Notes: a model not told the origin generated them from the letters alone. A DNA stretch of 64,000 nt from Thermoanaerobaculia bacterium (GCA_044226625.1 JBGAGQ010000015.1:1-64000), one strand, 5' to 3'; shown: positions 10,947-44,543, counted from the first letter of the stretch. A program made the numbers and translations.

Positions 10947-10981
10947 CAGCGGTCGTCCTTCTCGGTTGTTTGCCGAGAGGT

Positions 10982-11873: not shown

Positions 11874-14558
<2,685 letters not shown>

Positions 14559-26030: not shown

Positions 26031-26615
26031 ATGTCCGCAGAGCCCGTCGCCCGCCTTTCCGCCTTGGAGTACTTGGAGATCGAACGCGCCTCCGAGCTCA
26101 AGAGCGAGTTCCTGGACGGCGAGATGTTCGCCATGACCGGTGCGAGCTTCGCTCACAACCGGATCGGCGCGAACCTCCTTCGGTTGTTGGGCAACGCGCT
26201 ACGGTCCGGGCCCTGCCAGGTGGCGACCAGCGATCAGCGGGTGAAGATTGCCGCGACCGGCCTTTACACCTATCCGGACGCGGTCGTCGTCTGCGGTAGG
26301 CCGGAATTCGAAGAGGGTCGGACGCCGGATACGCTGCTCAATCCGGCGATGCTGGTCGAGGTGCTCTCGCCATCGACCGAGGCGACCGACCGGGGGAAAA
26401 AATTCGAGCATTACCGCGCGATACCGTCGCTCCGCGAGGTGATGTTCATCTCGCAGGATCAGCCGCTCGTCGAGCACTTTCGGCGCCTCACGGACGATCG
26501 CTGGCTGCTGACTCCGGTCGCGGGCCTCGAGGCCTCGGTCGAGTTGCCGACGTTCGAGGTGCGCCTACCGCTTGCCGAGATCTTCGAGCGGGTTCTGCCG
26601 CCGGCCGAGGTCTAA
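26031..26615 (+). CDS. Uma2 family (PD-(D/E)XK) endonuclease-like protein
   Basis: EFLDGEMFAM, HNRI, YPD, VEVLSPST, DRGKKFEHY. Confidence 0.92.
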   Translation: MSAEPVARLSALEYLEIERASELKSEFLDGEMFAMTGASFAHNRIGANLLRLLGNALRSGPCQVATSDQRVKIAATGLYTYPDAVVVCGRPEFEEGRTPDTLLNPAMLVEVLSPSTEATDRGKKFEHYRAIPSLREVMFISQDQPLVEHFRRLTDDRWLLTPVAGLEASVELPTFEVRLPLAEIFERVLPPAEV

Positions 26616-26717: not shown

Positions 26718-29432
26718 ATGCGTCTCGTATTTCTAACCGTTTCGATCGCCTTGCTCGCCGCCGTTCCCTGTGCGGCGATAACGCCGTATCTGGTGCGCGA
26801 CATCTCGCGAATCTCGATGCCTGAAAACTCCAACCCCGATTCCTTCGTCTCCCTGGGGAATCGGGCGCTCTTCTGGGCGGGTCGAGGGGGCGACCTTTGG
26901 GCAAGCGATGGCACGTCCTCGGGAACGCTTTTGATCCAACCGCGTTTGGCCGGTCGACCGTTCGCCCTTGCCGGAGATACCGCCTACGTCCTTTCGACGG
27001 TGAACGGCAGTCCGTTCTCCCTCTGGTCGAGCCGAGGGACTTCGGAGACGACCGAATTTCTTTCCGATTTCGCGTTGCTCGGGAGCTCCGGCATTCCCGT
27101 GGTGTCGGTGCCGGGAACGCGAACCATTTTCTTTCTGGCGGCGGATCCGGCGCACGGTCGCGAGCTGTGGACCAGCGACGGCACCGCCGCCGGTACACAC
27201 CTGGTGATCGACCTCAAGCCGGGGATCATGAGCGGCGAGGTGACGGAGCTCACCTGGTTTCGCGGCCGCCTGTTCTTCAACGGTGACGACGGACGAGGCT
27301 TTGCGCTCTGGTCGACCGACGGCACGGCGGCCGGCATGCGGCGCGTCCGCGTCTTTACGCAGAGCACGCCGGAGGGGGCGTTCTTGCTCCGCGCACTGCC
27401 GAACCGTCTGATTTATTTCGGACCGGAGCGCGGCCGGGGTTACGAGATGTGGGCCTCGGACGGCACCACGGCCGGTACCGTGCCGCTTCCCGAGATCGCT
27501 TCGGGATCTCGCAGCGCCTTCCCGCGCGATGCCATCGTGGTAGGGAATCGTTACTACGCCGTGGCGAGCGACGGCCGGACCGGCTCCGAGCTTTGGACGA
27601 CGGATGGGACGGCCGGAGGCACCCGGCAGCTCACCCGCTTCCGTCCGGCCGAGCCGTTCGAGCCGTCCGGGCGGGTCTTTTCTTTCTACCAACTGCCGAA
27701 CCGCCTCGTCTTCCATGCCGACGACGGCTCGAAAGGGCAAGAGCCGTGGGTGAGCGACGGCACGGTGGCCGGTACGAAGATGCTCGCCGACCTCTGCGTA
27801 GGGAGCTGCGGATCGGCTTCAGGAACCTTTCCCAGCCCTCCCAATCGCTTGCTGATCGGGGCGACGCAGCCGGCGACCGGTTCGGAGCTTTGGACGACCG
27901 ACGGCACTCCCGCCGGGACTCGCCTGCTCAAAGACATTTGCCCGGGCACCTGCTCGTCGAACGAGTACGGCTTCCATCGTCTCGGCAACCGCATCTTGTT
28001 CGCGGCCACCGACGGCGCCCACGGCGAGCAGCTCTGGTCGACCGACGGCACGCCGGGCGGTACCGCGCGGATTTCGAACCTCGCCGACCCGATGCCGTTC
28101 GGCGGCTATTTTCCCGGTACCGCGGCCGGCGGTTCGCTGGTCTTTCCCGCCCAAGATGCGGTCCACGGGCGCGAGCTCTGGTCGAGCCGCGGCCGGCTCG
28201 GAACCACGCGGTTGGTCGCCGACCTCGAACCGGGACAGAACGAGTTTTCCGGCTCCTTCCCCAGCGACCTTGTCTCCGCCGGTACGCGGACCTTCTTCTT
28301 CGCGAACGACGGGATCGAGGGCTATGAGTTGTGGGCGAGCGACGGCACCGCCGCCGGAACGGTTCGAGTTTCCGATTTCGCTCCCGGAAGCGACCCTGGA
28401 TCTCCGCCGTTCGATCTCAAGGCGGCCGGAGGTGACGGGCGCCTGTTGTTCGCGGCTTCCATAGCGACAGGGCAGGGTCTCTGGATCGCGGATGGATCGC
28501 CGGACGGAACTCTGCCGATCGGCCTGCCGGGAGGTCAGCGCGTCGAACAGGTTGCGGTCGTCGGCGACCGGCCCTATTTCTCGACCTTCGATTCGCAGAC
28601 TTTTGAGAGGCGACTCTGGAAGACCGATTGGACGGGCTTACCGCGAACGGAGATCGCATCCTCACCCTCCGTCTCTTGGCTGCATGCCTTCGGTGCCGGC
28701 CTGCTCTTCTCCCGCGAAGGTTCGGCTGAAGAACAGGGACTCTGGATCGACGACTCGAGCGGCCTCCGTCGTCTGGCGGCCGTGACGCCGCAAAGCGAAC
28801 CGACGACGTTCGGCGGAAAGGTCTGGTTTTTCGGACGTGACGCCGACGGACAGGAAGCCGTTTGGGCGACCGACGGTACCGAGGCGGGTACCGTCGAGAC
28901 GATTTTCCTCCAGCGGGCATTCGGCGGACCGAAATCTCCGCTGGCCGGGGGGACGACGACCCTCTACGTCTTCGGCGATGGAGAGCAGGGCATCGGTCTC
29001 TACGCCGCCGAGGGTACGGAAGCGTCCCTTCGCTACCTCGGGGTCCTGTGGCCGAGTCTGGACATTCGCGGCGAGAAGACGCCGGTGGTTCTCGGAGACC
29101 GCCTGTTCTTCGAGGCCCCGTTACCTGGTCAGCCCGGCGAGACCGTCCTCTGGTCGAGTGACGGAACGCCAAGCGGAACGGCACCGCTCCAGTCCGATAC
29201 GAACGCCTCCCTGTTCAACCCGATCCATCTCCAGGTCTTCGCGGGGAAGGTGGTCGGATTCCTGTTTGATTCCTGGTTCGTTTCCGACGGAACGCCCGCG
29301 GGGACGACCCTCCACAAAGATCCGAACGTCACGTTGAGCGCCTTCAGCTCGCCAGCCCAAGCCGCCGGTCGGCTGTTCTTCCCGGCCACCTCGCCCGAGG
29401 CCGGAACGGAAATCTGGGCTTTGCAGCCCTAG
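26718..29432 (+). CDS. Secreted ELWxxDGT repeat protein
   Basis: Signal peptide; more than ten G.ELW.(S/T)DGT..GT-like repeats; AGGAGA SD. Confidence 0.93.
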   Translation: MRLVFLTVSIALLAAVPCAAITPYLVRDISRISMPENSNPDSFVSLGNRALFWAGRGGDLWASDGTSSGTLLIQPRLAGRPFALAGDTAYVLSTVNGSPFSLWSSRGTSETTEFLSDFALLGSSGIPVVSVPGTRTIFFLAADPAHGRELWTSDGTAAGTHLVIDLKPGIMSGEVTELTWFRGRLFFNGDDGRGFALWSTDGTAAGMRRVRVFTQSTPEGAFLLRALPNRLIYFGPERGRGYEMWASDGTTAGTVPLPEIASGSRSAFPRDAIVVGNRYYAVASDGRTGSELWTTDGTAGGTRQLTRFRPAEPFEPSGRVFSFYQLPNRLVFHADDGSKGQEPWVSDGTVAGTKMLADLCVGSCGSASGTFPSPPNRLLIGATQPATGSELWTTDGTPAGTRLLKDICPGTCSSNEYGFHRLGNRILFAATDGAHGEQLWSTDGTPGGTARISNLADPMPFGGYFPGTAAGGSLVFPAQDAVHGRELWSSRGRLGTTRLVADLEPGQNEFSGSFPSDLVSAGTRTFFFANDGIEGYELWASDGTAAGTVRVSDFAPGSDPGSPPFDLKAAGGDGRLLFAASIATGQGLWIADGSPDGTLPIGLPGGQRVEQVAVVGDRPYFSTFDSQTFERRLWKTDWTGLPRTEIASSPSVSWLHAFGAGLLFSREGSAEEQGLWIDDSSGLRRLAAVTPQSEPTTFGGKVWFFGRDADGQEAVWATDGTEAGTVETIFLQRAFGGPKSPLAGGTTTLYVFGDGEQGIGLYAAEGTEASLRYLGVLWPSLDIRGEKTPVVLGDRLFFEAPLPGQPGETVLWSSDGTPSGTAPLQSDTNASLFNPIHLQVFAGKVVGFLFDSWFVSDGTPAGTTLHKDPNVTLSAFSSPAQAAGRLFFPATSPEAGTEIWALQP

Positions 29433-29436
29433 GTCG

Positions 29437-30663
29437 ATGGCGTTGGAGACCCCAGCTCATTCGCCTTTCCGGCCCGCGATCAGCCGCGGCCCGTCGTGCG
29501 GTCCGGGCGCGTATGTCCTAGCCGCCGCGTTCGCGGGGGTGCTCGTTGCCGCATGTTTCGGAGCCCCGGCGGCCATTGCCCAAGAGGCCCTCAAGGTTGG
29601 GGAGGAACGACCCTACTTCCTCGCGACGCCGGCCGCCTACCCGGCCGGTTCGCCGGATCGACCGGCGACCTGGACGCGGACGATCGTTTCGCCCGGCGCG
29701 ACGTTCCTCCGCGTTCACCTGAGCGAGCTCGATTTGCCCGCAGGGGACTATCTGACCCTCGCGAGCCCAGACGGTAAGGAGGCCTTCACCTATCGCGGTC
29801 GAGGGCCGCACGGCACTGGCGAGCTCTGGAGTTTCCTCATCGGCTCGGACACCGCGATCGTTTCCCTACATTCCGGGCCCTTGCGCGTGGAGGGACACCA
29901 CGGTGTGACGATCGATCGCATCGCGTATGGAATCGGACCGCTCGAAGGTCTCTCGTCGCCCGCCAAGGCGATCTGCGGTACCGACGGCCGAGAAAACGCG
30001 GTCTGCCATCCGGAGGTGAACGTGCGGCCCATCGCGCGGCTGGCGTTTCAGCGCGACGGCTGGACGCTCTTCTGCACCGGCTTTCTGGTCGCCGGATCGA
30101 ACCCGAATACGATGATCACGAACAGCCACTGTTTCAAGACCCAGGCGGAGGTAGATACGGTCGAGGCCACCTTCAATTACCAGGCGAGACGGTGCGCCCC
30201 TTCCGCGCTTGCTCCGTCGCGACGATATGCCGGAGGGACGTTCCTACGGACGAGCCCGGTGACGCGGCTCGACTACACGCTGTTCACCCTCGAAGGAAAC
30301 CCCGAGGCCACCTGGGGCGAGTACACCGCGACCCGCAAGCGGCCGAGGGTCGGGACGGCGCTCGACTTTCCTCAGCACTCGATGGGGCGGGCGAAGCAGA
30401 TCGCCTATTGGCAGGATGCCGCCCACACTCGACGCTGCACGGTCGCGACCGTCGACGCCACCTACGAAACGGCCCCCGCGAGCCAGATGGGGTACGGCTG
30501 CGACGCCGAAGTCGGCTCGTCCGGCTCCCCGATCCTCGATCCTTCCAACGGCCGCGTGCTCGGAATCAATCATTTCGGCGACGTCGCTGGAGCTTGCCTA
30601 AACGCCGCCACCCAGATGAGGAACATCTGCGGGAACGCGGGCGCGCTGTTGCACTGTAATTGA
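29437..30663 (+). CDS. Secreted trypsin-like (S1) serine protease with N-terminal CUB-like pro-domain
   Basis: TNSHC (His), LDY (Asp), GSSGSP (Ser); AICG maturation-like site; start uncertain. Confidence 0.88.
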   Translation: MALETPAHSPFRPAISRGPSCGPGAYVLAAAFAGVLVAACFGAPAAIAQEALKVGEERPYFLATPAAYPAGSPDRPATWTRTIVSPGATFLRVHLSELDLPAGDYLTLASPDGKEAFTYRGRGPHGTGELWSFLIGSDTAIVSLHSGPLRVEGHHGVTIDRIAYGIGPLEGLSSPAKAICGTDGRENAVCHPEVNVRPIARLAFQRDGWTLFCTGFLVAGSNPNTMITNSHCFKTQAEVDTVEATFNYQARRCAPSALAPSRRYAGGTFLRTSPVTRLDYTLFTLEGNPEATWGEYTATRKRPRVGTALDFPQHSMGRAKQIAYWQDAAHTRRCTVATVDATYETAPASQMGYGCDAEVGSSGSPILDPSNGRVLGINHFGDVAGACLNAATQMRNICGNAGALLHCN

Positions 30664-31140: not shown

Positions 31141-31279
31141 CTACCTAGGATGCTGTTGCTCTGCGCCGGGGGGGATGCCGAGAGTCCGCGGGAAGTGCCT
31201 AGTACTGCTCCTCAAAGCCCCGGGGTGGAATACCATCCGGCGCGTCCGTCCAATTCATTCGACCCGAGGACCGATAGAG

Positions 31280-34200
31280 ATGAAGCCGCTCGGCGGGAGC
31301 GGTGCGCCCCGGGAACGAAAGGCCACCTTGCGCCCGAGGCTCGCTCTCTGGGGTCTTGTCGTCGTTCTGCTCGTAACCACGGGTGTCGGCCGGATTCCCT
31401 CCGCGGGCCGGAACGACGTGGCCCTTGAACTTCCCGGTTCGACCCTCAATTCTCAACTCGATCTCGCCACGAAGGTCCCAGAGCCGTATCGGGACGCGGC
31501 GGTCCGCGCGGTTCAGGCGCGGCGCGAAGGGCGGGTCTCTTCCGCCGTGGAGGGCCTCGCCGACCTTGCGCTCGATCTGCCGGAAAACGGCTCCGTCCAA
31601 ACCGCTCTTGGCGAAGCGTTCCTTGCGCGTTCGGCGACCTCGAAAGGCAGTCCTCGGGACCTTGCGCTCGGTCTCGACGCCGCGGAGCACGCGGTCGCCC
31701 TCGCGCCCCGGTCGGCCGAAGCGCTCTTCGTCCGAGCGGAGATTGCCACCCGGCTCCATCTGACCGCCGCTGGGATCTCCGGCTGGACGAGATTTCTCGC
31801 CGTGGATTCGGACTCGCCACGGGCCGGCCATGCGCGCGCCGCGATCGAAACGCTGCGCGTTCCGTCGTCTTACGACCTCTGGGAAAGCGGGGATCGGGCA
31901 CGCTTCGAGGCTGCGGCGAGGACCGGGGATTCCAAAGCACTCTTTGACCTTGTGAAGCGGTACCCGCTCTTTGCACGCCTCGAAACGGAGGAGATTCTCT
32001 TCCCTCGTTGGGGGCGGTCCCAGGCGCCGACCGAGCTTGCGGCGTTGAGGGGAATCGGCAAGGCGTTTGCGGTCGTCCTCCGGGATTCGATGGTGGCCGA
32101 TACGGTCGCTTCAATCGAGACGGCGGCTCCGGAAGGTCGAAGGAAGCTCGCGCGTGGATTGGCGGCGTTCGGCGAAGGGATGAGGTGCTATCGCCAGATT
32201 GGATCCGGAGAGCCCGGTCCATGGCTCTCTGCCGCGGCCCTGGACCTAGCGGGCAGTCCGTTCGCAGGATGGCCACGGTATTACGGAACGGTCCTTCTTC
32301 AACGCGGATCGGTGGCCGAGGCCGATGCCGAGCTCCGGACGCTGGGGAGCCTCTTCGACGCTGTACGCTACCCGACCCTGGGGGGGCGGATCCGCTGGCT
32401 GCAAGCGACAGGAGGGCTTTTTCTAGAACGACCTGAAGCCGCGCTGAAGCCCTATGGGGATGCCCTGGAGATTCTTTCCCGCAGCGAAGGAGAGCAGATC
32501 AGAGGTTTCATGCACCTTCTGGTGGGGGAGGCGTACGCCCGGCTCGGCGATCGAGACCAAGAATGGCGCGACTATGGGGAGGCTCTGAGCCGGCTACAAC
32601 TTACGGAGTTGCGCGCCCAGGAAGCGACCCTCTACGAGATCGTAGAGTCTTTGCTTGGCGAGAATCGGACCTGGGCGGCGTTGGCCTTCTCTCGTGATTT
32701 GAGGACCGTATGTCGCCGTTGGGGGCGGCCCGGAGCGCTCGCCGAGCAGGCGTTGCAGTTCGGACGGCTCAAGACGCAGCTGGGCGACGATCGGGGTTCG
32801 CTCCAAACGCTTAAGGCGGCCCAGGGGTTTGCAGAAAAAGTCAATCTTCCGGATCTACGCGAACGTTTCGAGGCGACCATCGAGATGGCTGAAGGTCGTT
32901 CCCTCGTCGCGAGAGATCCCCTGGCCGCAATCGAGCATTTGACCTCGGCTCTTACCCGCCATCGGCGAACGGAATTTCGCTATCACGAAGCCGGTCTCCT
33001 GGTCGCGCGGGCGGATGCGTTTCGCTCTTTCGGTCGGTACGCCGAGGCCGCGAAGGACCTTCTAGAATCGATCGAGATCTACGAAGGAAAGAGGGGAGCG
33101 ACCCGAGACCCGCAACTCCGGCAGAGTTCTTTCGAGGAGGCACAGGTCGCATTCGATTCGATGATCTCGCTTCAGGCCGAGTCGCTAGGAGACGCCGGAA
33201 AGGCCTTCTCTTTCGCCGAACGGTCTCGCGCGCGCCTCCTGTTCGACCAGATCGCTGGGCATGGCTCCGCGCCGGAGTTAGGGCTTCCTCTGGAAGCCGA
33301 ATCGATCCAGCGTGCTTGGCCCACCGACTCGGTGTTGGTCGAATATGCGGTTCTGCCGGATCGGCTGTACATCTGGTCGGTCGCGTCGGGTCGGCTTCGA
33401 CTCCACGTCGACAGGGTCTCGTCCCGCGAGTTGGAGCGGGCGGTCGGCACGCTCGCCCGGGGAGTGGCGAGGGGAGAGTTGGGTCTCGATGAGCGTGCCG
33501 CTTCGCAGAAACTCTACCGATCTCTCATCCAGCCGATCCTCGGCGAGGTCCCGCAAGGTGCCGATCTGTCCGTCGTCCCGGATCGATTCCTCGCCCGGCT
33601 GCCGTTCGCCGCGCTTCTCGATCCGTCCGACGGTCGTTATCTGATCGAGGACCGAATGATCTTGATCCAGCCGAGCGCGTCGTTCTATCTGGCGGCTCGG
33701 AATCGTCGATCGAAACAGCCGAGGGGAAGCGGTCCCGTATTCGTCATAGGAGATCCGGCTTTCAGTCGGGCGGCCTATCCCAGGCTGCGCCAGCTGCCGG
33801 AGGCTCGCGCTGAAGCCCGAGAGATCGCGGATCTCGATTCTCGTTCCATCCTATTGATCGGTCATGCCGCGACCCGCTCGGCTTTTCTCCGCGTGGCCCC
33901 AGAGGCGCGAGTCATCCACATCGCGGCGCATGCCATTCTCGACGCTCGAAATCCGGGGCTTTCGCGGATCGTTCTTGCGCCCGAAGTCGACGGGACGGGA
34001 GGAGCGATCACGGCGCAGGACATCGCGAAACTCGACCTCTCCCATGCCAATCTGGTCGTGCTTTCAATATGCAATGGGGTAGCAGGGGGTGATTCCGGTA
34101 GAGAGAACATCTCGGGCTTGGCGGCTTCGTTCCTCGCAGCCGGGGTTGGTACCGTGGTTGCGAGCCAGTGGGAAGTCGATGACGCGTGGAGTCGAACTGC

Positions 34201-34330
34201 GCTGCGCCGGCTTCTCCAAGGGGCTTCGAGACATCGGGACCTTCGATCATCTTTGGTTGGGGAAAATAGCGAAAGCCAGAAGGAAAATACTATCTCTGCG
34301 CGCTCGCTATTTGCGGTCTACGGACAATAA
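31280..34330 (+). CDS. TPR-CHAT (caspase-like) cysteine protease with N-terminal TM anchor; start uncertain (31175 or 31280)
   Basis: AERSRAR, VVPDRFL..LPFAAL, HIAAHA (His), VLSICNG (Cys), VVASQWEVDD. Confidence 0.9.
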   Translation: MKPLGGSGAPRERKATLRPRLALWGLVVVLLVTTGVGRIPSAGRNDVALELPGSTLNSQLDLATKVPEPYRDAAVRAVQARREGRVSSAVEGLADLALDLPENGSVQTALGEAFLARSATSKGSPRDLALGLDAAEHAVALAPRSAEALFVRAEIATRLHLTAAGISGWTRFLAVDSDSPRAGHARAAIETLRVPSSYDLWESGDRARFEAAARTGDSKALFDLVKRYPLFARLETEEILFPRWGRSQAPTELAALRGIGKAFAVVLRDSMVADTVASIETAAPEGRRKLARGLAAFGEGMRCYRQIGSGEPGPWLSAAALDLAGSPFAGWPRYYGTVLLQRGSVAEADAELRTLGSLFDAVRYPTLGGRIRWLQATGGLFLERPEAALKPYGDALEILSRSEGEQIRGFMHLLVGEAYARLGDRDQEWRDYGEALSRLQLTELRAQEATLYEIVESLLGENRTWAALAFSRDLRTVCRRWGRPGALAEQALQFGRLKTQLGDDRGSLQTLKAAQGFAEKVNLPDLRERFEATIEMAEGRSLVARDPLAAIEHLTSALTRHRRTEFRYHEAGLLVARADAFRSFGRYAEAAKDLLESIEIYEGKRGATRDPQLRQSSFEEAQVAFDSMISLQAESLGDAGKAFSFAERSRARLLFDQIAGHGSAPELGLPLEAESIQRAWPTDSVLVEYAVLPDRLYIWSVASGRLRLHVDRVSSRELERAVGTLARGVARGELGLDERAASQKLYRSLIQPILGEVPQGADLSVVPDRFLARLPFAALLDPSDGRYLIEDRMILIQPSASFYLAARNRRSKQPRGSGPVFVIGDPAFSRAAYPRLRQLPEARAEAREIADLDSRSILLIGHAATRSAFLRVAPEARVIHIAAHAILDARNPGLSRIVLAPEVDGTGGAITAQDIAKLDLSHANLVVLSICNGVAGGDSGRENISGLAASFLAAGVGTVVASQWEVDDAWSRTALRRLLQGASRHRDLRSSLVGENSESQKENTISARSLFAVYGQ

Positions 34331-34368
34331 TAATAGCTGGACAGCCCGAACAGGGGAGAGGTGACGAT

Positions 34369-36156
34369 ATGGCCAACTTTGATTTTGAGTTCATTATTAC
34401 GGGCATGTGCTTTCTTGAGTTTGATGACCGAATTACGCCGTCAAAATGCACCGTTCGAATCCCCAGGGCAGAAAAGGTCCCATTTACCTTTGCGGATGAG
34501 TTCGGCATCAACTCGGAGAAAGTCCCCGTGCCTCATCATCAAATTTTGAGCTTCCCAACACGTTTCCAGGTCTCAAACGCCAGCGGCCGAAGAAGGCCGC
34601 CGGATCGTGTCGTGCCAGCGCCTGATGGAGATGAACTTGGAATCTGTATTTTGAATAGAAATGAGACGTTTGACCTCAAGATCTTCGGGGCATCACCACC
34701 GTTGACCACTTCCGGACCGCTCTATCCTCCGAATGGGGTGCCTGCCGCCGGAGAAGAAGGAGATTTTCGTTGGACGGCAAGTCTGGACGAATTCCTTAAG
34801 GCTGGAGGGTTCTCGTCTGGGGGGATCGATTTGAATTGAATTGGAACCCAAGTCATTATCACGAATGGAGAATTCTCGACCTTGGAGGTTGGAAGACAGG
34901 CTGGCGAATTGATTCCGTATCAGATTGCTAAAATCAAGGATAACCCCGTAACGCCTGGACGGCATTCGTTGGCAGATGCCGTGGTGCTTCGAGTCAAGGG
35001 CGTTGCAGACCGAGTCGTCTTGATTCCAAATGATGGAGGAGCTGAGTTTACCTTCTCGGCGAGACAATGGGTAAAGCTCTCGGAACCAGTTCGGGTTTGC
35101 CTCTCGAATTTCCACGACACTCTTCACGACAGCCCTCGTGGCCTGATCGACTTCCTCTGGTACTACTACTCGCTCAAGAATTTGAAGGACAAAGATAATA
35201 AGAGGCCGAAGTGGGAGGATCTCTTCATCCCGTGGATACCCCATAATTTGTCAGGGAAAGTCACAGGAAGCAGTGGTCATTGCCCGCCAATTGCAGTTAA
35301 TTTTGGAGATGCAACCGCGTGGAATCTAGATGAGAATGATGTCTTTGGTGAGATAAAATTGGTTGGCAACGAGACGAACCCGATCGTGAAGGACTGTGTG
35401 TTGATCCGCCGAATGAACACTGTGGTCGGAAGCGGGGTCTTGGTTGCGAAGAACATGGTACTTACCGCCGGGCATGTTCTAGATGAGCACCCCACAGGTA
35501 TTTCTTACCTTGAGATAAGAGACAAAGAAAGAAAAGAAATAAACGTCACGTTCATGGAGGGTGTCTACGCCGTCGAAGGCGACGCGGACCTCTTGCTCTA
35601 TCGGCTGCTGGATGATGTAGACGCTGATATATGCGCGAGAGCGGCTTCTGGTGAAATAGGTAGTGAGATTAGGGCTGTCGGATTTGGTTTTTCGGACACC
35701 GGCACCGACAGAACTCAACGAGAGGCGTGTTTGGATGTCGTGAGTTTGGATTGCGGGAATCCTGGAGAGCCGAAGCTCTACTCGTGCAACAAGGGGAAGA
35801 CGTTGGTCGCGAAAGGTAAAAAGGGCGAGAAATTGATGTTGCATGATAGCGGGTCACCGGCTTATGTGACGGTTGACGGGATGAGGAAAGTCGCGGGAAT
35901 CGGCTTGCGTGTGACTTCGGGAACCTATTCGATCTATGCCTTGCTGCACGCTTCTAAGAAGTGGATTGATGACAATATTAAAGATTTGCAAGCAAGAGAG
36001 TCGAGTGTAGTCGGCGAAGGGCCAGTGAGGGCCATTACCGAACGGCCCCAAACGCCCCCAAAAACCGCTCCATCTGTGCCCCGGTCCCGACCGTCACGCG
36101 CAGGTGGGTCGGGAGCCCGGGGAAAAACTGCTCGACCTCGACGCCCTGCTCCTTGA
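34369..36156 (+). CDS. Unknown N-terminal domain fused to a trypsin-like protease, interrupted by one in-frame TGA at 34837-34839 (pseudogene or readthrough)
   Basis: ORFs 34369-34839 and 34882-36156 share a frame with 14 sense codons between; VLTAGHV, DADLLL, HDSGSP triad motifs. Confidence 0.7.
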
Positions 36157-36481
36157 GCGCCGCGATGATTGGGCGGACGTCCATCTTCAGATCGACCATG
36201 AAGAAGTGCGTGGCCGCGGGGATCGTCCGGTAGCCCTTAGCTTCGAGGGCGGCCATCGTGCTGCGCCGGGCGTCGAGGATCAGCTTCTTGGTTCGATCCA
36301 CGTGGGCCGAGTCGGCGAGGCTCGCTTTGTCGGCTTCGACGACGGCGATGTTGACCTTGTCCCAGGCTTGCTCCGCTTGGAGGCGTTCGATCGTCGACGC
36401 TTGGGCGACGGCGTAGCCGAGGCGCATTCCGGCGAGGCCGTAGATCTTCGAGATGGTTCGCGCGACGACCAGGTTGGGGTC
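36035..36481 (-). pseudogene. C-terminal fragment of a HisC-like class I/II aminotransferase
   Basis: DPNLVVARTISKIYGLAGMRLGY (PLP Lys motif) to LRVTVG; an in-frame TAG lies immediately upstream and the N-terminal half is absent. Confidence 0.85.
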
Positions 36482-36592
36482 CTAGGCATCAATCACCTCG
36501 GAGACGTCGCCTGGGCTTGTCTGAACGCCGCGACCCAGACGAGGAACATCTGCTTCCACGCCGGGGCGCTGTTGCGCTGCATGGAGCCGTAA
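36479..36592 (+). pseudogene. 3' remnant of a paralog of the 29437-30663 protease
   Basis: VLGINHLGDVAWACLNAATQTRNICFHAGALLRC vs VLGINHFGDVAGACLNAATQMRNICGNAGALLHC. Confidence 0.85.
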
Positions 36593-36680
36593 GGGACGAC
36601 GTCTCTCGGGGACGGGCGATGCGGCCCGTGAGCGCCGCCGTTGCGACGGCGCCCGCCCCGAGAAACGGAAGGAGACCGAG

Positions 36681-36989
36681 CTAGGCCTCGAGTTGGCAGA
36701 TCCCGCAGGTCTGGCCCGAACCGAGCTGGCAAACCCAGTCCGGACCGAACCAGTCCTGACATTGGGCGGTCGTGCTGCACCAGCCCGACTTGCACAGAAA
36801 GATCGGCTTCGGTGTGAAGAGATCCGGGCCTTCCGCGGGGACGTCCGGAGACGCGGGAGCCTGGCTGGAAACGGTCGGTACCTCCGAGAGTTGCAGCTCG
36901 GCGGCGCGAACCGGCTGGCTTCCGTAGACGACCGTCAACACGAAGAGAGCAAGGATCGGTACGAGGCGAGATGCGAGTTTCACGGACAT
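36681..36989 (-). CDS. Small secreted prepropeptide with six-Cys C-terminal core
   Basis: GAGGA SD; signal peptide ending VRA; acidic Pro-rich spacer; C-x4-C-x5-C-x9-C-x7-C-x2-C. Confidence 0.8.
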   Translation of the reverse strand: MSVKLASRLVPILALFVLTVVYGSQPVRAAELQLSEVPTVSSQAPASPDVPAEGPDLFTPKPIFLCKSGWCSTTAQCQDWFGPDWVCQLGSGQTCGICQLEA

Positions 36990-37223
36990 GACAGATCCTC
37001 CGTGAGGGGCTCCGGCGGTTCATCCACCGAGCACGGCTCTATGTAGAACGGTGCCTCCCGGGAGATAAAGCGTGCCTGGAGCGTCGTGAGTTCGAGCTTT
37101 CTGTGGAGCGTGTGATGATCGCGGCCGGCCTTGATGACCAGGGAAGGAAACAACCCGCGCGCGAATGCGTAGAGCGAGCCAGTGCCGCGCCGACGACGTC
37201 CACCGGCCGAGGAGGAATCTCTG

Positions 37224-38135: not shown

Positions 38136-41100
38136 ATGGCAACGACGGGATCGACGGGATCGAAGGCGTTCCGCGAGATTTTCCGCTTCGAGCTGCATCA
38201 GACGCTCCGCTCCCCGCTGTTCTGGGGGACCGGGTTGTTCTTCGCGACGATGACGTTCGGCGCCGTCACCTCCGACTCGGTCACGATCGGAGGCGGTATC
38301 GGCAATGTGAACCGCAACGCGCCGTTCGTCATCCTGCAGCTTCTGTCGGTGATGAGCGTGATCGGGGTCTTCGTCACCACCGCGTTCGTCGCCGGCGCGG
38401 CGCTTCGTGATTTCGAGCGCGGCACGCACGAGCTGTTTTTTTCGAAGCCGATGCGGACGCTCGACTATCTCGGCGGCCGTTTCGCGGGCTCGCTCGTCGC
38501 TTCGACCGGGGTCATGGTTCTATGCGCCGCCGGCATCCTGATCGGGAGCTTCATGCCTTGGCTCGACGCGCAGCGTGTCGGACCGACGCTCGCCGGCCCC
38601 TATCTGTTCGCGCTCGGCATCCTCGTGATTCCCAACCTGCTGCTCACCGGTGCGCTGTTCTTCGCGCTCGCCGCGGCGACCCGCAGCTGGCTCGTCACGT
38701 ACGTCGGCGTGGTGGTGTTCTTTGCCGCGTTCTTCGTTTCGGTCGTGATGCTCGGCGACGTCGAGCACCAGAGGCTGGGCGCGTTTATCGATCCGTTCGG
38801 CGCGTCGGCGCTCGATTATGCGACCCGTTACTGGACGGTCGCCGACAAGAACACCAGCCTGCCGGCGCTCACCGGGCCGCTGCTCTGGAACCGCCTGATC
38901 TGGTCGGCGGTCGGGCTCGTCATTCTCGCCGTGTCGTTCGCGACCTTCCGTACCTCCGGGCAGGCGCCTACGTACGGCGCCCTCGGGCGCTTCTTTTCGC
39001 GGCGCCGAATCGCGCGCGAGGCGAAGGCGGCGGCTGCGGAAGCGGCGCAGGACTCGAAAGCGCCGGTCGCGATCCCCACGGCCGCGCGTGATTTCTCCTC
39101 GCGTCGGAACCGCGCTCTCTTCCTCCACGCGCTCCGCCGAGAGACGGCCGGGGTCCTGAAGAGCATCCCGTTCATCGTGATCCTCGCCTTCGGAATGTTC
39201 AATCTCGCCGGAGGCTCGGCGGTGCGGTTCGAGCGGTTCGGCACCAAGGTCTATCCGGTGACCGCGCTGATGCTCGACAACATCCAAGGGAGCTTCCTCT
39301 TCCTGCTGGTGATCATCGTCACCCTCTACGCGGGCGAGCTGGTCTGGCGCGAGCGGCAGCTCAAGGTGGCGGAGGTCGCGGACGCTCTGCCGGTGCCGAG
39401 CTGGGTGCCGCTCCTCTCGAAGCTCGGGGCGCTCTGGGCGGTGATCCTCACCTTCCTCGTCGTGGGAGGCCTGACGGCGATCGGCATTCAGCTCTCGTAC
39501 GGCTTCACCCACATCGAGCCCACGCTCTATTTGAAAGGGCTCGGGATCGAGGCGGTGCAGTTCCTGCTCGCGGCGGTGCTCGCGGTGTTCTTCCAGGTCC
39601 TGTTCAACCAGAAGTTCGTCGGGTACCTCGCGATGATCCTGTTCCTGATCAGCCAGACGGTGCTCGCCTCGCTCCATTTCGACCATCGGCTCTACCGGTA
39701 CGGCGACACGCCGCCGATGACCTATTCCGACATGAACGGCTACGGTCATCTCCTGCGCGGTTTCACCTGGTTCAGCCTCTACTGGGCGTGCTTCGCACTG
39801 CTTCTGCTGATCGCCTCGGTCCTCTTCTGGGTGCGCGGAAGCGAGAGCGTCTGGCGTCTCCGCGTGCGCGAGGCGAGGGCGCGCTTCCGCGGTCCGTGGC
39901 GTGCGCTCGCCGCGACCGGTGCGATGGGCTTCCTCGCGATCGGCGCCTTCATCTTCTGGAACACCAACGTCTTGAACGCCTACGTGCCGAGCGACGAGCG
40001 GATGCTCCGACAGGCCGACTACGAGAAGAAGTACCGGAAGCTGCGGGATCGGACCTATCCGAAGGTGACCGACGTCGAAACGAACGTCGACATCTTTCCC
40101 GACGAGCGCCGGGTGGAGATCGCCGGCCGATACGTCCTCAAGAACAAATCGAACCGGCCCGAGGGGGAGATCTTCTTCCAACTCGACCCACGGGTCCGGG
40201 TGCGCAAGCTCTCGCTCGATCCGAGCTGGCGAACCGAGCACGACGATCGGCTCGGGGTCACGATCTACCGGCTTCCTAAGCCGCTTCCGCCCGGCGGCAC
40301 GATGGAGCTCCGCTTCGAACTGACCGTCGAGGAGAAAGGCTTCGTCACCGATCGGAGCGAGCTGTCGCTCGCCTACAACGGAACGTTCTTCAACAACGGC
40401 CAGTACCTGCCGGTGCTCACCTACGACGAGTCGCGCCAGCTCACGGACCGCAACGACCGGAAGAAGCACGGCCTCGGACCGGCCGAGCGGGTGGCGAAGC
40501 TCGAAGATCTCCACGCGCGAAGGAACAACTACCTTTCGAGCGACGCCGACTGGATCGGCTTTCGCGCCACCGTGTCGACGGACGCCTCGCAGATCGCGCT
40601 CGCGCCGGGTTACCTGAAACGCGAATGGCGTGTGGGGAACCGGCGGTATTTCCGCTACGAGATGGATCGTCCGATCCTCGATTTCTACTCGTTCCTCTCG
40701 GCGCGCTGGGCGGTGAAGCGGGACGTCTGGCATCCGGGCAAGGAGAACGTCGCGATCGAGATCTATTACGACCCGGCCCACGCCTACAACGTCGACCGGA
40801 TGATCGACGCGTCGAAAAAATCGCTCGACTACTGCACCGCGAACTTCTCGCCGTACCAGCATCGGCAGGTGCGGATTCTCGAATTCCCGCGCTACGCGAC
40901 GTTCGCGCAGTCGTTCCCGAACACGATTCCCTATTCGGAAGGGATCGGCTTCATCGCCGACCTGCGCGATCCGGACGACATCGATTACGTCTTCTACGTC
41001 ACGGCGCACGAGGTTGCGCATCAGTGGTGGGGACATCAGGTGATCGGCGGCGCCGTCCAGGGAGGGACGATGCTCTCGGAGAGCCTCGCCCAGTACACGG

Positions 41101-41801
41101 CGCTCATGGTGATGCAGAAGGAGTACGGCAAAGACAGGATGCGCCGGTTCTTGAAGTACGAGCTCGACCAGTATCTCCAGGGGCGAGGCGGCGAGCTGGT
41201 CGAGGAGCTGCCGCTGTACCGGGTCGAGAACCAGCCATACGTCCACTATCGGAAGGGGAGCCTGGTCTTCTACGCGCTGCAGGACGCGATCGGCGAAGAG
41301 ACGGTCGATCGCGCGCTCTCGCGCTACGTGGCGGAGGTCGCCTATCAGGAGCCGCCTTATACCTACACGCCGGATCTCTTGAAGATCCTGCGTGAGGTGA
41401 CGCCGCCTGACCGGCAGAAGCTCCTTTCCGACTTGTTCGAGACGATCACCCTCTACGACCTGCGCGCGACGAACGCCACTTGGACGAAGCGGGCGGACGG
41501 CAAATACCTGGTGAAGCTGTCGGTCGACGGCAAGAAACTGCGCGCCGACGGTAAGGGGGTCGAAACGCCGATCGCCCTCGACGATTCGATCGACGTCGGA
41601 GTGTTCGGCGAACGGGAGAGGAATGGCAAGAAAGAGGAGACGGTACTCTATCTCGCCAAGCACCGGCTCTCTCGAGAGCTGACCACGTTCGATCTGGTGG
41701 TCGACGCCGAGCCGGTCGAGGCGGGGATCGATCCGCTCAACAAACTCGTGGATCGCACCTCGGACGACAACCGGACGAAGGTGACGGCGGCCGGCGGGTA
41801 G
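38136..41801 (+). CDS. ABC-2 permease / M1 family aminopeptidase fusion
   Basis: Two permease-like TM blocks then FAQSFPNT, HEVAHQWWG and downstream SESLAQY, YRKG. Confidence 0.92.
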   Translation: MATTGSTGSKAFREIFRFELHQTLRSPLFWGTGLFFATMTFGAVTSDSVTIGGGIGNVNRNAPFVILQLLSVMSVIGVFVTTAFVAGAALRDFERGTHELFFSKPMRTLDYLGGRFAGSLVASTGVMVLCAAGILIGSFMPWLDAQRVGPTLAGPYLFALGILVIPNLLLTGALFFALAAATRSWLVTYVGVVVFFAAFFVSVVMLGDVEHQRLGAFIDPFGASALDYATRYWTVADKNTSLPALTGPLLWNRLIWSAVGLVILAVSFATFRTSGQAPTYGALGRFFSRRRIAREAKAAAAEAAQDSKAPVAIPTAARDFSSRRNRALFLHALRRETAGVLKSIPFIVILAFGMFNLAGGSAVRFERFGTKVYPVTALMLDNIQGSFLFLLVIIVTLYAGELVWRERQLKVAEVADALPVPSWVPLLSKLGALWAVILTFLVVGGLTAIGIQLSYGFTHIEPTLYLKGLGIEAVQFLLAAVLAVFFQVLFNQKFVGYLAMILFLISQTVLASLHFDHRLYRYGDTPPMTYSDMNGYGHLLRGFTWFSLYWACFALLLLIASVLFWVRGSESVWRLRVREARARFRGPWRALAATGAMGFLAIGAFIFWNTNVLNAYVPSDERMLRQADYEKKYRKLRDRTYPKVTDVETNVDIFPDERRVEIAGRYVLKNKSNRPEGEIFFQLDPRVRVRKLSLDPSWRTEHDDRLGVTIYRLPKPLPPGGTMELRFELTVEEKGFVTDRSELSLAYNGTFFNNGQYLPVLTYDESRQLTDRNDRKKHGLGPAERVAKLEDLHARRNNYLSSDADWIGFRATVSTDASQIALAPGYLKREWRVGNRRYFRYEMDRPILDFYSFLSARWAVKRDVWHPGKENVAIEIYYDPAHAYNVDRMIDASKKSLDYCTANFSPYQHRQVRILEFPRYATFAQSFPNTIPYSEGIGFIADLRDPDDIDYVFYVTAHEVAHQWWGHQVIGGAVQGGTMLSESLAQYTALMVMQKEYGKDRMRRFLKYELDQYLQGRGGELVEELPLYRVENQPYVHYRKGSLVFYALQDAIGEETVDRALSRYVAEVAYQEPPYTYTPDLLKILREVTPPDRQKLLSDLFETITLYDLRATNATWTKRADGKYLVKLSVDGKKLRADGKGVETPIALDDSIDVGVFGERERNGKKEETVLYLAKHRLSRELTTFDLVVDAEPVEAGIDPLNKLVDRTSDDNRTKVTAAGG

Positions 41802-41858
41802 CGAAGCTACGCCTCTGGAGTGGGGCAGGAGGAGAGCGGCGGCGTAGAATTCCCCGCC

Positions 41859-44543
41859 GTGGAGCTACTCTCGACTCACGTCGGTGCCGATTTCGACGCG
41901 CTCGCCTCGGTGCTCGTCGCGCGGCGACTCCATCCGGAGGCGAAGGTCTTCTTCCCCGGATCGCGCGAGGCCTCGGTACGGCGGATGCTCGCGACGGGGT
42001 TCGTCGAATTCGAGGAGCTGCGCCAGAGGCAGATCGACCCGGCGGCCTTGACGCGCGTGATCCTGTGCGACGTGCGCCAGAGCGACCGCATCGGCAAGCT
42101 CGGCGAGTGGCTCGCGGCGCGTCCCGAGATCGAGGTCTGGGCCTACGACCATCACGCCGACGGCGACCTGCCGCTCGCCGGTGGGAAGGTCGACGAAAAC
42201 GTCGGCTCGACCTCGACGATCCTCGCCGAGTTGCTCCGCGAGAAGGGAGTCGCCCCCACGGCGAGCGAGGCGACGCTTCTCCTGCTCGGTATCTACGAGG
42301 ACACCGGCGCCCTCACTTTCGCCACCACCCGGCCGCGCGATCTCGAAGCCGCAGCGCGGCTGCTTCAACAGGGGGGCGACCTCGCCCTGGTCCGCCGTTT
42401 CGCGAGCGCCGCGCTCGACCCGGAGCGGCTCGACCTGCTCCATCGGATCGCCCGCGCGCTCGAAGTCCATCGGATTCAGGGGCACCGCCTCGGGCTCGCC
42501 GAGATCGATCTACCAGGGTACGTCGAAGAGGTGGCGCCGCTCGTCTCGAAGAGCCTCGACCTATTTGGTCTGCCGACGCTCTTCGTGCTGTTCGCGATCG
42601 AGGACCGGGTGCTGGTGGTCGGGCGGAGCGACGAGGCTGGCGTCGACTGCGGCCAGATTCTCGGCGCCCTGGGGGGTGGCGGCCACGCGACCGCAGCGTC
42701 AGTTCGGATCCGAGGAACGCTCGTGGAAGTGCGGGAGTCGCTGCTCGCCGAGCTCGCCCGGCGGCTGCCTCCGTCGGCCCGGGCGCGCGACCTGATGGTG
42801 CCGGCGAGCGTCTCGCTCGATCCGCGCACGTCGATCGAGCAGGCGAAGGAGAGGCTTCGGATCGGGGCGGTGAACGCCGCCCCGGTGCTCGACGCGGAAG
42901 GACGGGCGGTGGGCGCCGTCACCCGTCAGCTCCTCGACGCCGCTCTCCAGCACGGCTTGGGTGACCGACCGGTCGAGACCGCGATGACCCGTGAGCTCGC
43001 CTGGGTGTCGGCCGATGCCCCGGCCGACGAGGCGGGGCGACAGATGCTCGCCCACCAGCCGCGCTTCGTCTTGGTCGGCGACCGGGAGGACGGCCGTCCG
43101 CTCGGGCTGGTCACGCGGATGCAGCTGCTCCATTACCTCGGCGCGCGGCTCGACCTGGAGACAGGCGGCGACTCGGGCGCCCTTCGCGTCGCGGCGGGGA
43201 GCGACGGCAGCCCCGATCGCCATCGCGCCGCGAGGCGCGAGGCGGCCGACCTGCTCGCGCGCGCGGAGCCCGCGATCGCCGATCGGATCGAGCGGATCGC
43301 CGCGGTCGTCAAGGCGGAGAACGTGCCGGTCTCCCTCGTCGGCGGCTTCGTCCGCGATTTGATCCTGGGCCGGCCCAACCGCGATCTCGACCTGGTGGTC
43401 GAGGGGGACGGTCCGGCGTTCGCCCGGGCGCTCGGCCGCGCCCTCGAAGCGCCGGTTCGCGTTCACGAGGCGTTCTTGACCGCGGTGGTTCGAACGGAGA
43501 CGGGGGAGATCGACGTCGCGACCGCGCGGAGCGAGTTCTACCGGGCTCCGGCGGCGCTTCCGGAAGTGGCGAGCTCGGCGCTGCGGCAGGATCTGTACCG
43601 GCGCGACTTCACCGTCAACACGCTCGCGATCCGCCTGCCTCCCGACGGCCTTGCCGAGTTGATCGACCCGTTCGGAGGCCGCCGCGACCTGACGCTCGGC
43701 GTCCTTCGGGTCCTCCACAGCCTCTCGTTTCTGGACGATCCGACGCGCGCCCTCCGCGCCGTGCGGCTCGAGCGCCGCCTCGGCCTCCGGATCGCCCCGG
43801 AGACCGAGCGGCTGATCGAGATCGCCCTCAAAGAGGGGGCGTTCGACCGCCTCTCCGGATCGCGGCTTTCCGCCGAGCTCGATCTGTTGCTCGGCGAGGA
43901 GGGAGCGGCGCTCCCCGGGCTCGAACGCCTCGCCGAGCTCGGTGTCCTCGGCGCGATCGAGCCTCAACTCGTTCACGATCGGTCGCTCGCCCCGGCCCTC
44001 GCCGAGCGCCTCCGCGGCGCCCTCGCCGCCTGGGAGTGGCAGCGTCTCGAGGGCCTCGCTCTTTCCTCCGATCTCGCCGAGCTGCTCGGTCTCGCGCTAG
44101 CGATCGACCTGCCGTTCACTTCACGCCGCCGGCTTGCGGATCGGCTCGCCCTTTCCGGCTCCCGCCGTGCCCGATGCCTCGCCGTTTCGGAGGTCGTGGC
44201 GACCGCTCTCGGTGCTCTGTCTCCCGACGCGCAGCCGAGCGCAGTCTCGGCCTCCCTCTCCGGTCTCGACGGGGAAGAGCTCCTTCTCGCTTTCGCCGCC
44301 ACCGACGAAGCGGGCCGCGCCTGGATCCGTCGCGATCTCGCCGAGCTGCGCGCGATCGAGCCCTCGATCCGCGGCGCCGACCTGCTCTCGGCTGGGTTCC
44401 CGGAAGGCCCCCTCCTCGGGTCCGCGCTGCGCGCGGTTCGGAGCGCGCTCCAAGATGGCGATCTTTCCCCCGGGCAGGAATCGGAGCTTGACTACGCGCT
44501 GCGTTCGCTCCGGCTTACACCCGTCGGCGAGGTGGCGTCATGA
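41859..44543 (+). CDS. tRNA nucleotidyltransferase (CCA/A-adding type) with DHH, DHHA1 and CBS domains
   Basis: ADFDAL, YDHH, EDTG, GGGH, CBS pair, VGGFVRD, DLDLVV, DLYRRDFTVN, DDPTR. Confidence 0.9.
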   Translation: MELLSTHVGADFDALASVLVARRLHPEAKVFFPGSREASVRRMLATGFVEFEELRQRQIDPAALTRVILCDVRQSDRIGKLGEWLAARPEIEVWAYDHHADGDLPLAGGKVDENVGSTSTILAELLREKGVAPTASEATLLLLGIYEDTGALTFATTRPRDLEAAARLLQQGGDLALVRRFASAALDPERLDLLHRIARALEVHRIQGHRLGLAEIDLPGYVEEVAPLVSKSLDLFGLPTLFVLFAIEDRVLVVGRSDEAGVDCGQILGALGGGGHATAASVRIRGTLVEVRESLLAELARRLPPSARARDLMVPASVSLDPRTSIEQAKERLRIGAVNAAPVLDAEGRAVGAVTRQLLDAALQHGLGDRPVETAMTRELAWVSADAPADEAGRQMLAHQPRFVLVGDREDGRPLGLVTRMQLLHYLGARLDLETGGDSGALRVAAGSDGSPDRHRAARREAADLLARAEPAIADRIERIAAVVKAENVPVSLVGGFVRDLILGRPNRDLDLVVEGDGPAFARALGRALEAPVRVHEAFLTAVVRTETGEIDVATARSEFYRAPAALPEVASSALRQDLYRRDFTVNTLAIRLPPDGLAELIDPFGGRRDLTLGVLRVLHSLSFLDDPTRALRAVRLERRLGLRIAPETERLIEIALKEGAFDRLSGSRLSAELDLLLGEEGAALPGLERLAELGVLGAIEPQLVHDRSLAPALAERLRGALAAWEWQRLEGLALSSDLAELLGLALAIDLPFTSRRRLADRLALSGSRRARCLAVSEVVATALGALSPDAQPSAVSASLSGLDGEELLLAFAATDEAGRAWIRRDLAELRAIEPSIRGADLLSAGFPEGPLLGSALRAVRSALQDGDLSPGQESELDYALRSLRLTPVGEVAS

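Follow-up and report, generated by a model that had tools for sequence, protein, structure and literature searches.

A decaying CHAT, Cys-tail and trypsin locus from a Thermoanaerobaculia bacterium: a candidate copy of a conserved, mobile cassette and putative protease relay

A stretch of 64,000 nucleotides from a Thermoanaerobaculia bacterium (GCA_044226625.1, JBGAGQ010000015.1, positions 1 to 64000; the whole stretch is called the window here) carries, between positions 31280 and 36156, a gene for a caspase-like protease with tetratricopeptide repeats (TPR) and a CHAT domain, followed by a gene that joins an unrecognised domain, which we call Cys-tail, to a trypsin. Do these two genes form one system, and if so, what would the Cys-tail domain do in it? 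An initial annotation, made from the sequence alone, had proposed that the downstream protein is the partner of the CHAT protease in a protease cascade. The data presented below consist of a protein family, a conserved synteny, fusions and a fission at the tail of the domain, intact catalytic residues, a break in base composition and a nonsense codon. They lead us to an answer that we hold to have slightly better than an even chance of being right, namely that CHAT protease, Cys-tail protein and second protease form a conserved, mobile cassette that would act as a two-step protease relay, and that the locus holds a decayed copy of it.

The TPR-CHAT gene occupies 31280 to 34330 on the plus strand, within an open reading frame (ORF) of 1051 codons (31175 to 34330, plus strand) whose likely start is M36 at 31280 and whose TAA stop lies at 34328 to 34330, by ORF map and translation. 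The protein matches Pfam CHAT (PF12770, clan CD) over residues 775 to 1027 with an E-value of 1.2e-48 (166.5 bits against a cut-off of 24), and a TPR_12 match is weak (Pfam E 5.5e-4). The catalytic His and Cys columns (HIAAHA and LSIC) are invariant across 33 aligned CHAT proteins, the window copy included: the dyad is present. A spacer of 38 nucleotides with a Shine-Dalgarno-like GGGGAGAGG (34331 to 34368, plus strand) separates the CHAT stop from the ATG of the downstream gene at 34369, exactly the distance that the initial annotation had given. The downstream frame (34369 to 36156, plus strand) opens with MANFDFEFIITGMCF and continues through FLWYYYSL, GSSGHCPP and EIKLVGN. Every string quoted in that annotation is found in the translation, and its descriptions of an unrecognised domain of about 300 residues, of a trypsin with an intact triad and of a protein without a hydrophobic N-terminal signal all hold.

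Alignments, profile searches and a hidden Markov model (HMM) place the Cys-tail domain at 34369 to 35295 (plus strand), where it comprises about 305 residues, is predicted to be all-beta, belongs to no known family and ends in TGSSGHCPP. It keeps the three residues that are invariant in its family, H56, G167 and C305 (the last followed by PP), as well as the nearly invariant N247. A variable linker containing EIKLVGN, delimited by alignment, spans 35296 to 35421 (plus strand) and leads into the trypsin-fold serine protease domain of family S1 (35422 to 35988, plus strand; triad H369, D407, S494). This domain scores 27.6 bits against Pfam Trypsin (PF00089, cut-off 20.6) over residues 195 to 376 of the frame from 34840 to 36153, a local S1 HMM matches 35368 to 35988, and all three triad residues are invariant in an alignment with three full-length homologues.

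Those homologues, the metagenomic proteins P0004 to P0006, are with the window's own second half the only full-length relatives found among 5.8 billion proteins when the read-through, with X at the stop, served as query. They are 544 to 560 residues long and share 37 to 38% identity with it by BLASTP and 38 to 40% in the alignment, at 91% coverage; no DNA locus for them was found in searches of genome contigs and metagenome contigs. A full-length-profile search of about 400 genomes of the host phylum and class, same-genus genomes among them, found no full-length relative, and the same profile searches gave three more distant loci of the same gene order (G618, G572 and G666). One member of a homologue cluster is labelled Thermoanaerobaculia. 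The alignment does not support one earlier suggestion, that EIK-LVGN is an activation site of the K/R-IVGG type: the motif sits in a four-residue insertion specific to the window and absent from all three homologues, and the residues in front of the conserved V-x-G segment, which lies just ahead of the motif, are D, T, E and T, so that there is no conserved basic P1 residue.

How did the downstream gene come to lie here? From about 34250 to 36000 the DNA is AT-richer on average, with a guanine-plus-cytosine (GC) content of about 0.50 against about 0.65 around it, as the initial annotation had noticed; values run from 0.44 to 0.56 within the segment and from 0.61 to 0.73 outside, and the edges are sharp. 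The segment begins close to the end of the CHAT gene, inside its final ~30 codons, and the Pfam CHAT match stops at profile position 259 of 289, which together suggest that recombination within the CHAT 3' end replaced what had followed the CHAT gene. The nearest relatives of the window's Cys-tail copy are metagenomic (44% identity) and not the two other copies of the genome; given this distance and the composition break, the AT-richer segment was probably acquired horizontally. An HMM scan of the window found neither a remnant S8 gene nor a second Cys-tail copy downstream, and the CHAT flanks share no synteny with the same-genus genome G402 beyond the CHAT gene itself.

The downstream gene is a pseudogene in the making, which weakens the earlier reading as applied to this copy. 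An in-frame TGA at codon 157 (34837 to 34839, plus strand; from translation and alignment) splits the Cys-tail domain, whose HMM matches both halves (34369 to 34800 and 34843 to 35298, with E-values of 2.4e-23 and 4.1e-29). The frame ends in a foreign tail of about 50 Pro/Arg/Ser-rich residues (36001 to 36156, plus strand) that overlaps the 3' end of a convergent gene. Family homology ends near DLQARE (~35997), about 10 residues after which the homologues stop, GC rises from 0.44 to 0.66 at 36000, and the tail has a third-position GC (GC3) of 0.46 although it lies in GC-rich DNA. Since both halves remain in frame with the family's conserved residues, the break is recent; the same fact would suit a gene that is still functional, its TGA being read through, recoded or an assembly error. 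We regard such a functional gene as very improbable. The TGA column holds A, E and A, and not Cys, in the three homologues, with conserved alignment on both flanks (window against P0004 to P0006); the TGA recurs at depths of 14 and about 5 in the contigs of two runs, which are not independent, both coming from one bioreactor-metagenome sample that is possibly the source of this DNA; and the 3' end is non-native too. Selenocysteine was considered for the TGA and is unlikely, again because the homologues have no Cys in that column.

If this copy is decaying, is the Cys-tail domain itself a real and widespread family? A profile built from seven N-terminal domains and run against 1.84 billion cluster representatives retrieved 275 at E <= 1e-3, 71 at E <= 1e-10 and 20 at E <= 1e-30, and nearly all of the 150 matches listed are stand-alone proteins of 280 to 350 residues. 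The His, Gly and Cys are invariant and the Asn nearly so across 111 aligned members; in nearly all of about 100 stand-alone members the Cys, usually within CPP, lies 4 to 12 residues from the C-terminus (a few have 13 to 27). Among genomes of the host's class, 90 of 401 have a match to the family, and in a sample of the phylum 13 of 401 do; only five candidates per genome were scored in these searches, so that copy numbers are underestimated. The domain has no model match in Pfam, NCBIfam or PADLOC; PADLOC returned only weak matches to the protease parts of the locus, LmuA for the trypsin domain (9.2e-7) and BovA for CHAT (1.6e-3). We found no description of the family or the cassette in the family libraries or in the full-text literature outside subscription journals and supplements. 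Cys-tail thus appears, from sequence comparison, to be a large protein family undescribed in Pfam, NCBIfam and PADLOC.

The AlphaFold2 model is mainly beta with long strands, at a predicted local distance difference test (pLDDT) score of 94.7 and a predicted template-modelling (pTM) score of 0.92 with 112 sequences; with 7 sequences the pLDDT was 66. Foldseek found no match in the PDB at E <= 0.001 (best 0.014, TM score about 0.1), a profile search of the PDB gave no match at E <= 1, the BFVD search was blank and the ESM Atlas search returned no usable match, and the modelled fold is apparently new. Three other identities were considered for the domain. Gasdermin was rejected with the fold and family searches blank, a lipobox-like or prepilin-like reading of the conserved N-terminus (FTGLC) did not fit the consensus, and a sulfatase-type C-x-P-x-R reading of the tail fits only two or three members.

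How constant is the company of CHAT? The loci examined are the best-scoring matches of three genome searches, and further matches lie outside the tally. Of the 46 distinct Cys-tail loci, 42 have a CHAT gene as their immediate upstream neighbour in the same orientation: all four of the first set (window, G618, G572, G666), 24 of 26 of the second (exceptions L046 and L060) and 14 of 16 of the last (exceptions L076 and L078), which was called with local HMMs and confirmed with Pfam. L078 is an orphan Cys-tail copy in the window's own genome, and L063 comes from G560, which is flagged unpublished. The adjacency extends to six of seven loci from other classes of the phylum, the same order can be read from coordinates elsewhere too (for example G401:C100 and G403:C20), and the flanking genes vary between loci (MacB/FtsX, PGI, ferrochelatase). 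The window's genome of about 6.6 Mb holds 35 CHAT, 7 S8 and 9 Trypsin_2 matches. With 35 CHAT matches in that length chance adjacency should be rare, by our estimate below 1% per gene, and a serine protease or Cys-tail domain follows CHAT only at the two CHAT genes of the window and at one on contig C78.

Behind this constant pair the second protease changes. It is encoded in the same direction as the Cys-tail domain, or fused to it, in 21 of the 46 loci (C14 in 11, S1 in 5, S8 in 4 and a papain-like C70/C39 peptidase in 1), and four further loci have a C14 gene in the opposite orientation. Fusions of Cys-tail to S1 are present in the window, G666, P0004 to P0006, P0013, P0020, P0021, P0025 and P0026, and a fusion to S8 in P0101. 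G618 and G572 have the split form, in which a Cys-tail protein of about 288 residues stops five residues past the invariant Cys (ending in TGSSGVCPPIRT and TGSSAACPPGTF) and a trypsin gene comes next. The genes of the split G572 locus lie at 11117 to 14239, 10228 to 11097 and 9326 to 10216 of L032, and those of the fused G666 locus at 7397 to 10531 and 5685 to 7361 of L033. The closest relative of the window's CHAT protein (48% identity, 1356 residues), from G402 of the same genus, is itself a CHAT::Cys-tail fusion: the last 250 residues correspond to the Cys-tail profile, starting at the invariant His and running to the terminal TGSSAFCPPLRP (hhalign 98%, E 2.2e-13), and an S8 gene follows. 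One domain fused to CHAT, to S1 and to S8 points to functional linkage, for which such fusions are classic evidence. In the window's genome the two other Cys-tail copies are followed by ORFs of about 300 residues without a Pfam match, whose TAHH/AAWH and GTSG/GDSGG motifs recall those of an S1 protease in divergent form, in an alignment that does not reach significance. One locus, L067 (G365:C1:2150000-2169500), holds two cassettes back to back, CHAT > Cys-tail > C70/C39 and CHAT > Cys-tail > S8, with an extracytoplasmic function (ECF) sigma gene and a zf-HC2 anti-sigma-like gene between them.

These results carry the initial annotation's claim that the downstream protein is a CHAT partner well past the window. 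The count that it called for, of homologues of the N-terminal domain behind CHAT genes, is the 42 of 46 given above, to which the S1, S8 and CHAT fusions are added; homologues free of CHAT, which by its own account would have told against the pairing, are not the pattern seen. Its suggestion of a swappable protease is likewise borne out, with S1, S8, C14 and C70/C39 all found and both S1 and S8 fusions in existence.

A quick maximum-likelihood tree of 54 Cys-tail domains, with branch support from the Shimodaira-Hasegawa-like approximate likelihood-ratio test (SH-aLRT), shows where the domains linked to each protease fall. Twelve of the 13 S1-linked domains fall in one clade (support 91); all 11 same-strand C14-linked domains and three of the four opposite-strand ones fall in another (99), from a single bacterial family (f8); and the S8-linked domains are scattered (5 changes). 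The window copy groups with P0004 to P0006 (99), sister to the split pair G572 and G618 (97). The tree fits a co-evolution of the Cys-tail domain with its protease.

That Cys-tail is the constant partner of CHAT, while the second protease varies or goes unrecognised in 21 of 46 loci, also suits a different division of labour, in which the chain would end with the Cys-tail protein as effector, a toxin or pore-former kept latent until its short tail is removed, and both proteases are its activators (compare gasdermins, Pepco and EACC1). The all-beta model with its long strands and the invariant Cys so near the C-terminus would be in keeping with this, and activation of the small beta-protein Pepco by cleavage of its tail, and an autoinhibited EACC1, are described (PMC12642450). 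We nevertheless hold the effector role to be rather unlikely. No gasdermin or other defence model of PADLOC matches the domain, no solved pore-former resembles it in structure, and the sequence shows no evident amphipathic or transmembrane segment; an effector would not usually be fused ahead of a protease, at its N-terminus, and a toxic effector would have no need of the invariant His-Cys pair.

The relay that we prefer to a terminal effector would have three parts. The first would be a membrane-anchored or exported TPR-CHAT sensor-protease; the second, the all-beta Cys-tail protein of about 300 residues, its translation closely coupled to that of the CHAT gene; and the third, a second protease whose clan varies (C14, S1, S8 or papain-like) and which is fused, in the sub-clade of the window, to the Cys-tail C-terminus. 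What we infer about this system concerns binding, cleavage with its direction and site, compartment and biological role. The Cys-tail domain would be a dedicated partner or substrate of CHAT and, in the role of a large pro-domain or an adaptor, would hold the second protease inactive; the TPR part would sense a signal, upon which CHAT would cut at or near the conserved C-terminal tail (T-x-S-S-G-x-C-P-P) or the linker; and the cut would free the second protease, completing a two-step relay. In the window, the S1-fused version would have come horizontally and displaced whatever followed the resident CHAT gene, and this copy would then have been inactivated by the TGA at codon 157 and the loss of its own 3' end. 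A complex prediction for CHAT residues 440 to 1039 of the G572 protein with Cys-tail scored 0.00, which is no verdict and weighs neither way. A bolder version, which we put forward only tentatively and think less probable than its negation, is that Cys-tail has a new fold and stands for a new class of adaptors or effectors gated by a protease, through which a TPR-CHAT sensor exposed at the envelope would be coupled to executioner proteases that can be exchanged for one another (C14, S1, S8, papain-like). The result would be a bacterial and possibly extracytoplasmic cascade of the caspase style, switched by the invariant His-Cys pair of the tail, which would serve as a metal latch, a thiol latch or a site of self-processing.

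Several observations weigh against the relay. A six-frame HMM scan of the window's genome found only three Cys-tail loci against 35 CHAT matches, and two of the three lie directly behind CHAT. Within flanks of 1.5 kb, some of which end at contig ends, the second protease was unrecognised in 21 of 46 loci, and the C14-type loci, many of them from one family and one clade, count as few independent events. The alignment with the three homologues shows no conserved cleavage motif in the linker, and the invariance of the His and Cys might point to enzymatic activity or metal binding and not to a passive pro-domain.

The more serious difficulty concerns compartments, which we judged from N-termini by Kyte-Doolittle (KD) hydropathy and the charges of the flanks. 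The window's CHAT protein begins with a basic stretch of about 20 residues and then a single hydrophobic segment, LALWGLVVVLLVTTGVG (KD 2.25, N-flank +4, C-flank 0). The same plan recurs in all eight full-length cassette CHAT N-termini that were read (weakly in G365b, KD 1.45), and in five of the eight the N-flank is the more positive, which predicts an N-in, C-out topology. Two other CHAT paralogues have canonical lipoboxes (LTAC, LSGC) and two more have lipobox-like motifs; all six C14 proteases with N-termini read have signal peptides; and the S8 proteins of G402 and the window have signals or lipoprotein signals, although some S8 proteins have none. The Cys-tail proteins, the S1 trypsins and the C70 peptidase lack a signal peptide, and only a few bases part the CHAT stop from the start of the Cys-tail gene, too few for a hidden leader. 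With CHAT exported or anchored and Cys-tail leaderless, the protease and its proposed substrate may lie on opposite sides of the membrane. The initial annotation had counted different compartments as a point against the pairing, and on this its claim fares unevenly: the CHAT signals set against a leaderless partner do touch it, whereas the CHAT::Cys-tail fusion of G402 speaks the other way and argues that the two can share a compartment.

The same signals could be taken to mean that the Cys-tail protein is no substrate at all. It would then be a leaderless cytoplasmic guard, an inhibitor or chaperone that neutralises neighbouring proteases before their export, for which staphostatins offer a comparison. 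Its lack of a signal peptide beside CHAT, C14 and several S8 proteins that have one, and the tight coupling of its gene downstream of a protease gene, would be expected of a guard. Fusions to leaderless S1 and S8 proteases and to the C-terminus of an anchored CHAT, however, place Cys-tail with its partners, and 300 residues with an invariant His and Cys are large for an inhibitor. We think a guard improbable.

An exported TPR-CHAT protein also recalls signalling, and the cassette might be an extracytoplasmic signalling device, with a periplasmic TPR-CHAT sensor like DdvA whose proteolysis would alter gene expression or envelope proteins, instead of a conflict or cell-death module. DdvA is described as a periplasmic TPR-CHAT protein that signals through an ECF sigma factor (PMC11506125), many other CHAT genes of these genomes lie near ECF sigma genes by coordinates, and the ECF sigma and zf-HC2 pair of G365 stands between two cassettes. 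Yet no sigma or anti-sigma domain was found beside the window locus, G618, G572 or G666, and the N-terminal tails of the cassette CHAT proteins are too short for an anti-sigma domain. We judge signalling of this kind marginally less probable again than a guard. The genome of the window (G000) itself has at least 56 ECF sigma region-4 matches, and several of its CHAT genes (for example on C81, C84, C121 and C58) lie within a few kilobases of an ECF sigma gene; this is the arrangement of ECF, anti-sigma and TPR-CHAT genes already known, which differs from the Cys-tail cassettes. Pfam searches of the neighbouring ORFs found no ECF sigma gene beside the window locus, and the genome-wide check covered the matches listed, beyond which there are 93 more.

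The two-step relay can also be set against known systems. In the type III-B CRISPR system of Haliangium ochraceum, SAVED-CHAT is described as activating PCaspase by cleavage, an enzyme that PCi in turn modulates (Steens et al., bioRxiv 10.1101/2023.06.23.546230); as in our cassettes, CHAT stands beside a second protease, there activated by cleavage, and a small accessory protein modulates that protease. That system is described in the same source as cytoplasmic, sensed through cyclic tri-adenylate (cA3) and SAVED and linked to CRISPR and to cyclic-oligonucleotide-based antiphage signalling (CBASS), with PCi a CI-2-like inhibitor said there to lack homologues. Here, in contrast, a TPR sensor has an N-terminal anchor, CRISPR is absent, the accessory family is conserved at 300 residues, and the second protease is S1, S8, C14 or C70. 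SAVED-CHAT activating PCaspase is, by analogy, the nearest tested precedent for the relay. In the type III-E system Craspase, which is cytoplasmic, Cas7-11 acts with the TPR-CHAT protein Csx29, which cuts Csx30. The likeness is that a TPR-CHAT protein cuts a protein encoded beside it, as CHAT would do in the cassette; no CRISPR genes are present here, however, Csx30 is unrelated to Cys-tail, and the neighbours are an ELWxxDGT-repeat protein, a secreted trypsin and an aminotransferase-like gene.

Defence modules that pair a protease with an effector (gasdermin, Pepco, EACC1, metallo-beta-lactamase (MBL) and alpha/beta-hydrolase; PMC12642450) share with the cassette a protease gene coupled to a small non-enzymatic partner, which in those modules is described as licensed by site-specific cleavage, for Pepco in the C-terminal tail. 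Cys-tail matches none of them by Pfam, PADLOC or fold search and has about 300 residues against the 117 reported for Pepco; it is also flanked by two proteases, and its CHAT has export signals. DdvA, with its partner DdvS in Myxococcus xanthus, is the solved precedent of a periplasmic TPR-CHAT protein, described with a zinc anti-sigma N-terminus, an ECF sigma partner and a proposed self-cleavage (PMC11506125). It is membrane-anchored, with a large extracytoplasmic TPR-CHAT domain and a His-Cys dyad. The window's CHAT protein has such a dyad and a putative anchor, and its TPR-CHAT part may likewise lie outside the cytoplasm, to judge from the charge bias of +4 against 0 across its single hydrophobic segment. 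Unlike DdvA, the window's CHAT has only its basic tail of about 20 residues, a dedicated downstream partner and no sigma neighbour; Pfam found neither a sigma nor a zf-HC2 match in the ORFs next to the locus. Trypco1 and Trypco2, finally, are domains defined, like Cys-tail, by their company with proteases, and are described as co-occurring with trypsin-like peptidases in conflict systems centred on vWA-MoxR (Kaur et al. 2020, PMC7159879). Our cassettes centre on CHAT, and no Pfam family matched Cys-tail, though the Trypco models are perhaps not in the Pfam copy used. Protease-linked partner modules as such are known; the partner family, its apparently new fold, the layout with two proteases and the export signals are new.

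The other CHAT gene of the window lies on the minus strand at 7435 to 10023 (Pfam CHAT E 1.9e-28). Its product has a lipoprotein-type signal (SLVSC), no Cys-tail gene accompanies it, and the Cys-tail HMM has no match at this locus. Directly downstream, at 5176 to 7338 (minus strand), is an S8 subtilase (Pfam Peptidase_S8 E 5.3e-10) with a lipoprotein-type signal (LAATGC) and an N-terminal region of about 286 residues without a Pfam family match. Each CHAT gene of the window is thus paired, as the initial annotation stated, with a downstream serine protease of a different clan, S8 here and S1 at 35422 to 35988 on the plus strand. A 339-residue ORF without a family (10020 to 11042, minus strand) overlaps and precedes the first CHAT gene.

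Upstream of the Cys-tail locus, a Uma2-family putative restriction endonuclease (26031 to 26615, plus strand; Pfam E 8.1e-34) lies just ahead of a pair of genes at 26718 to 30663 (plus strand), a 904-residue ELWxxDGT-repeat protein (TIGR04534, E 1.9e-133, nine repeat stretches) and, coupled to it by four nucleotides, a 408-residue Trypsin_2 protease with a signal peptide. This pair lies about 600 nucleotides ahead of the CHAT gene and probably forms a secreted unit of its own. On the other side, the convergent ORF at 36035 to 36427 (minus strand) resembles the C-terminal third of histidinol-phosphate aminotransferases (E 4.1e-7 to PDB 3ly1), and the ORF just upstream of it (36493 to 37023, minus strand) matches nothing; the aminotransferase-like gene (36035 to 37023) may have suffered a frameshift or a truncation at its junction with the AT-rich insert. 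Farther along are a 1221-residue protein that joins ABC-2 type permease domains to an M1 peptidase domain (38136 to 41801, plus strand) and, after it, a 907-residue protein with DHHA1, CBS and PolyA_pol head domains (41820 to 44543, plus strand).

The gating of a partner by a protease is emerging as one of the main principles by which bacterial immunity and signalling work, and to our knowledge only a handful of such partner families are known. For the genome of this Thermoanaerobaculia bacterium the locus is merely a decaying, horizontally acquired copy. For the family, our analysis adds a large uncharacterised partner tied to CHAT and to a changing second protease, and poses the puzzle of how a leaderless partner would meet an exported protease. 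The natural fused, split and CHAT-fused forms mark where cleavage should be sought, and they make the proposed relay directly testable.

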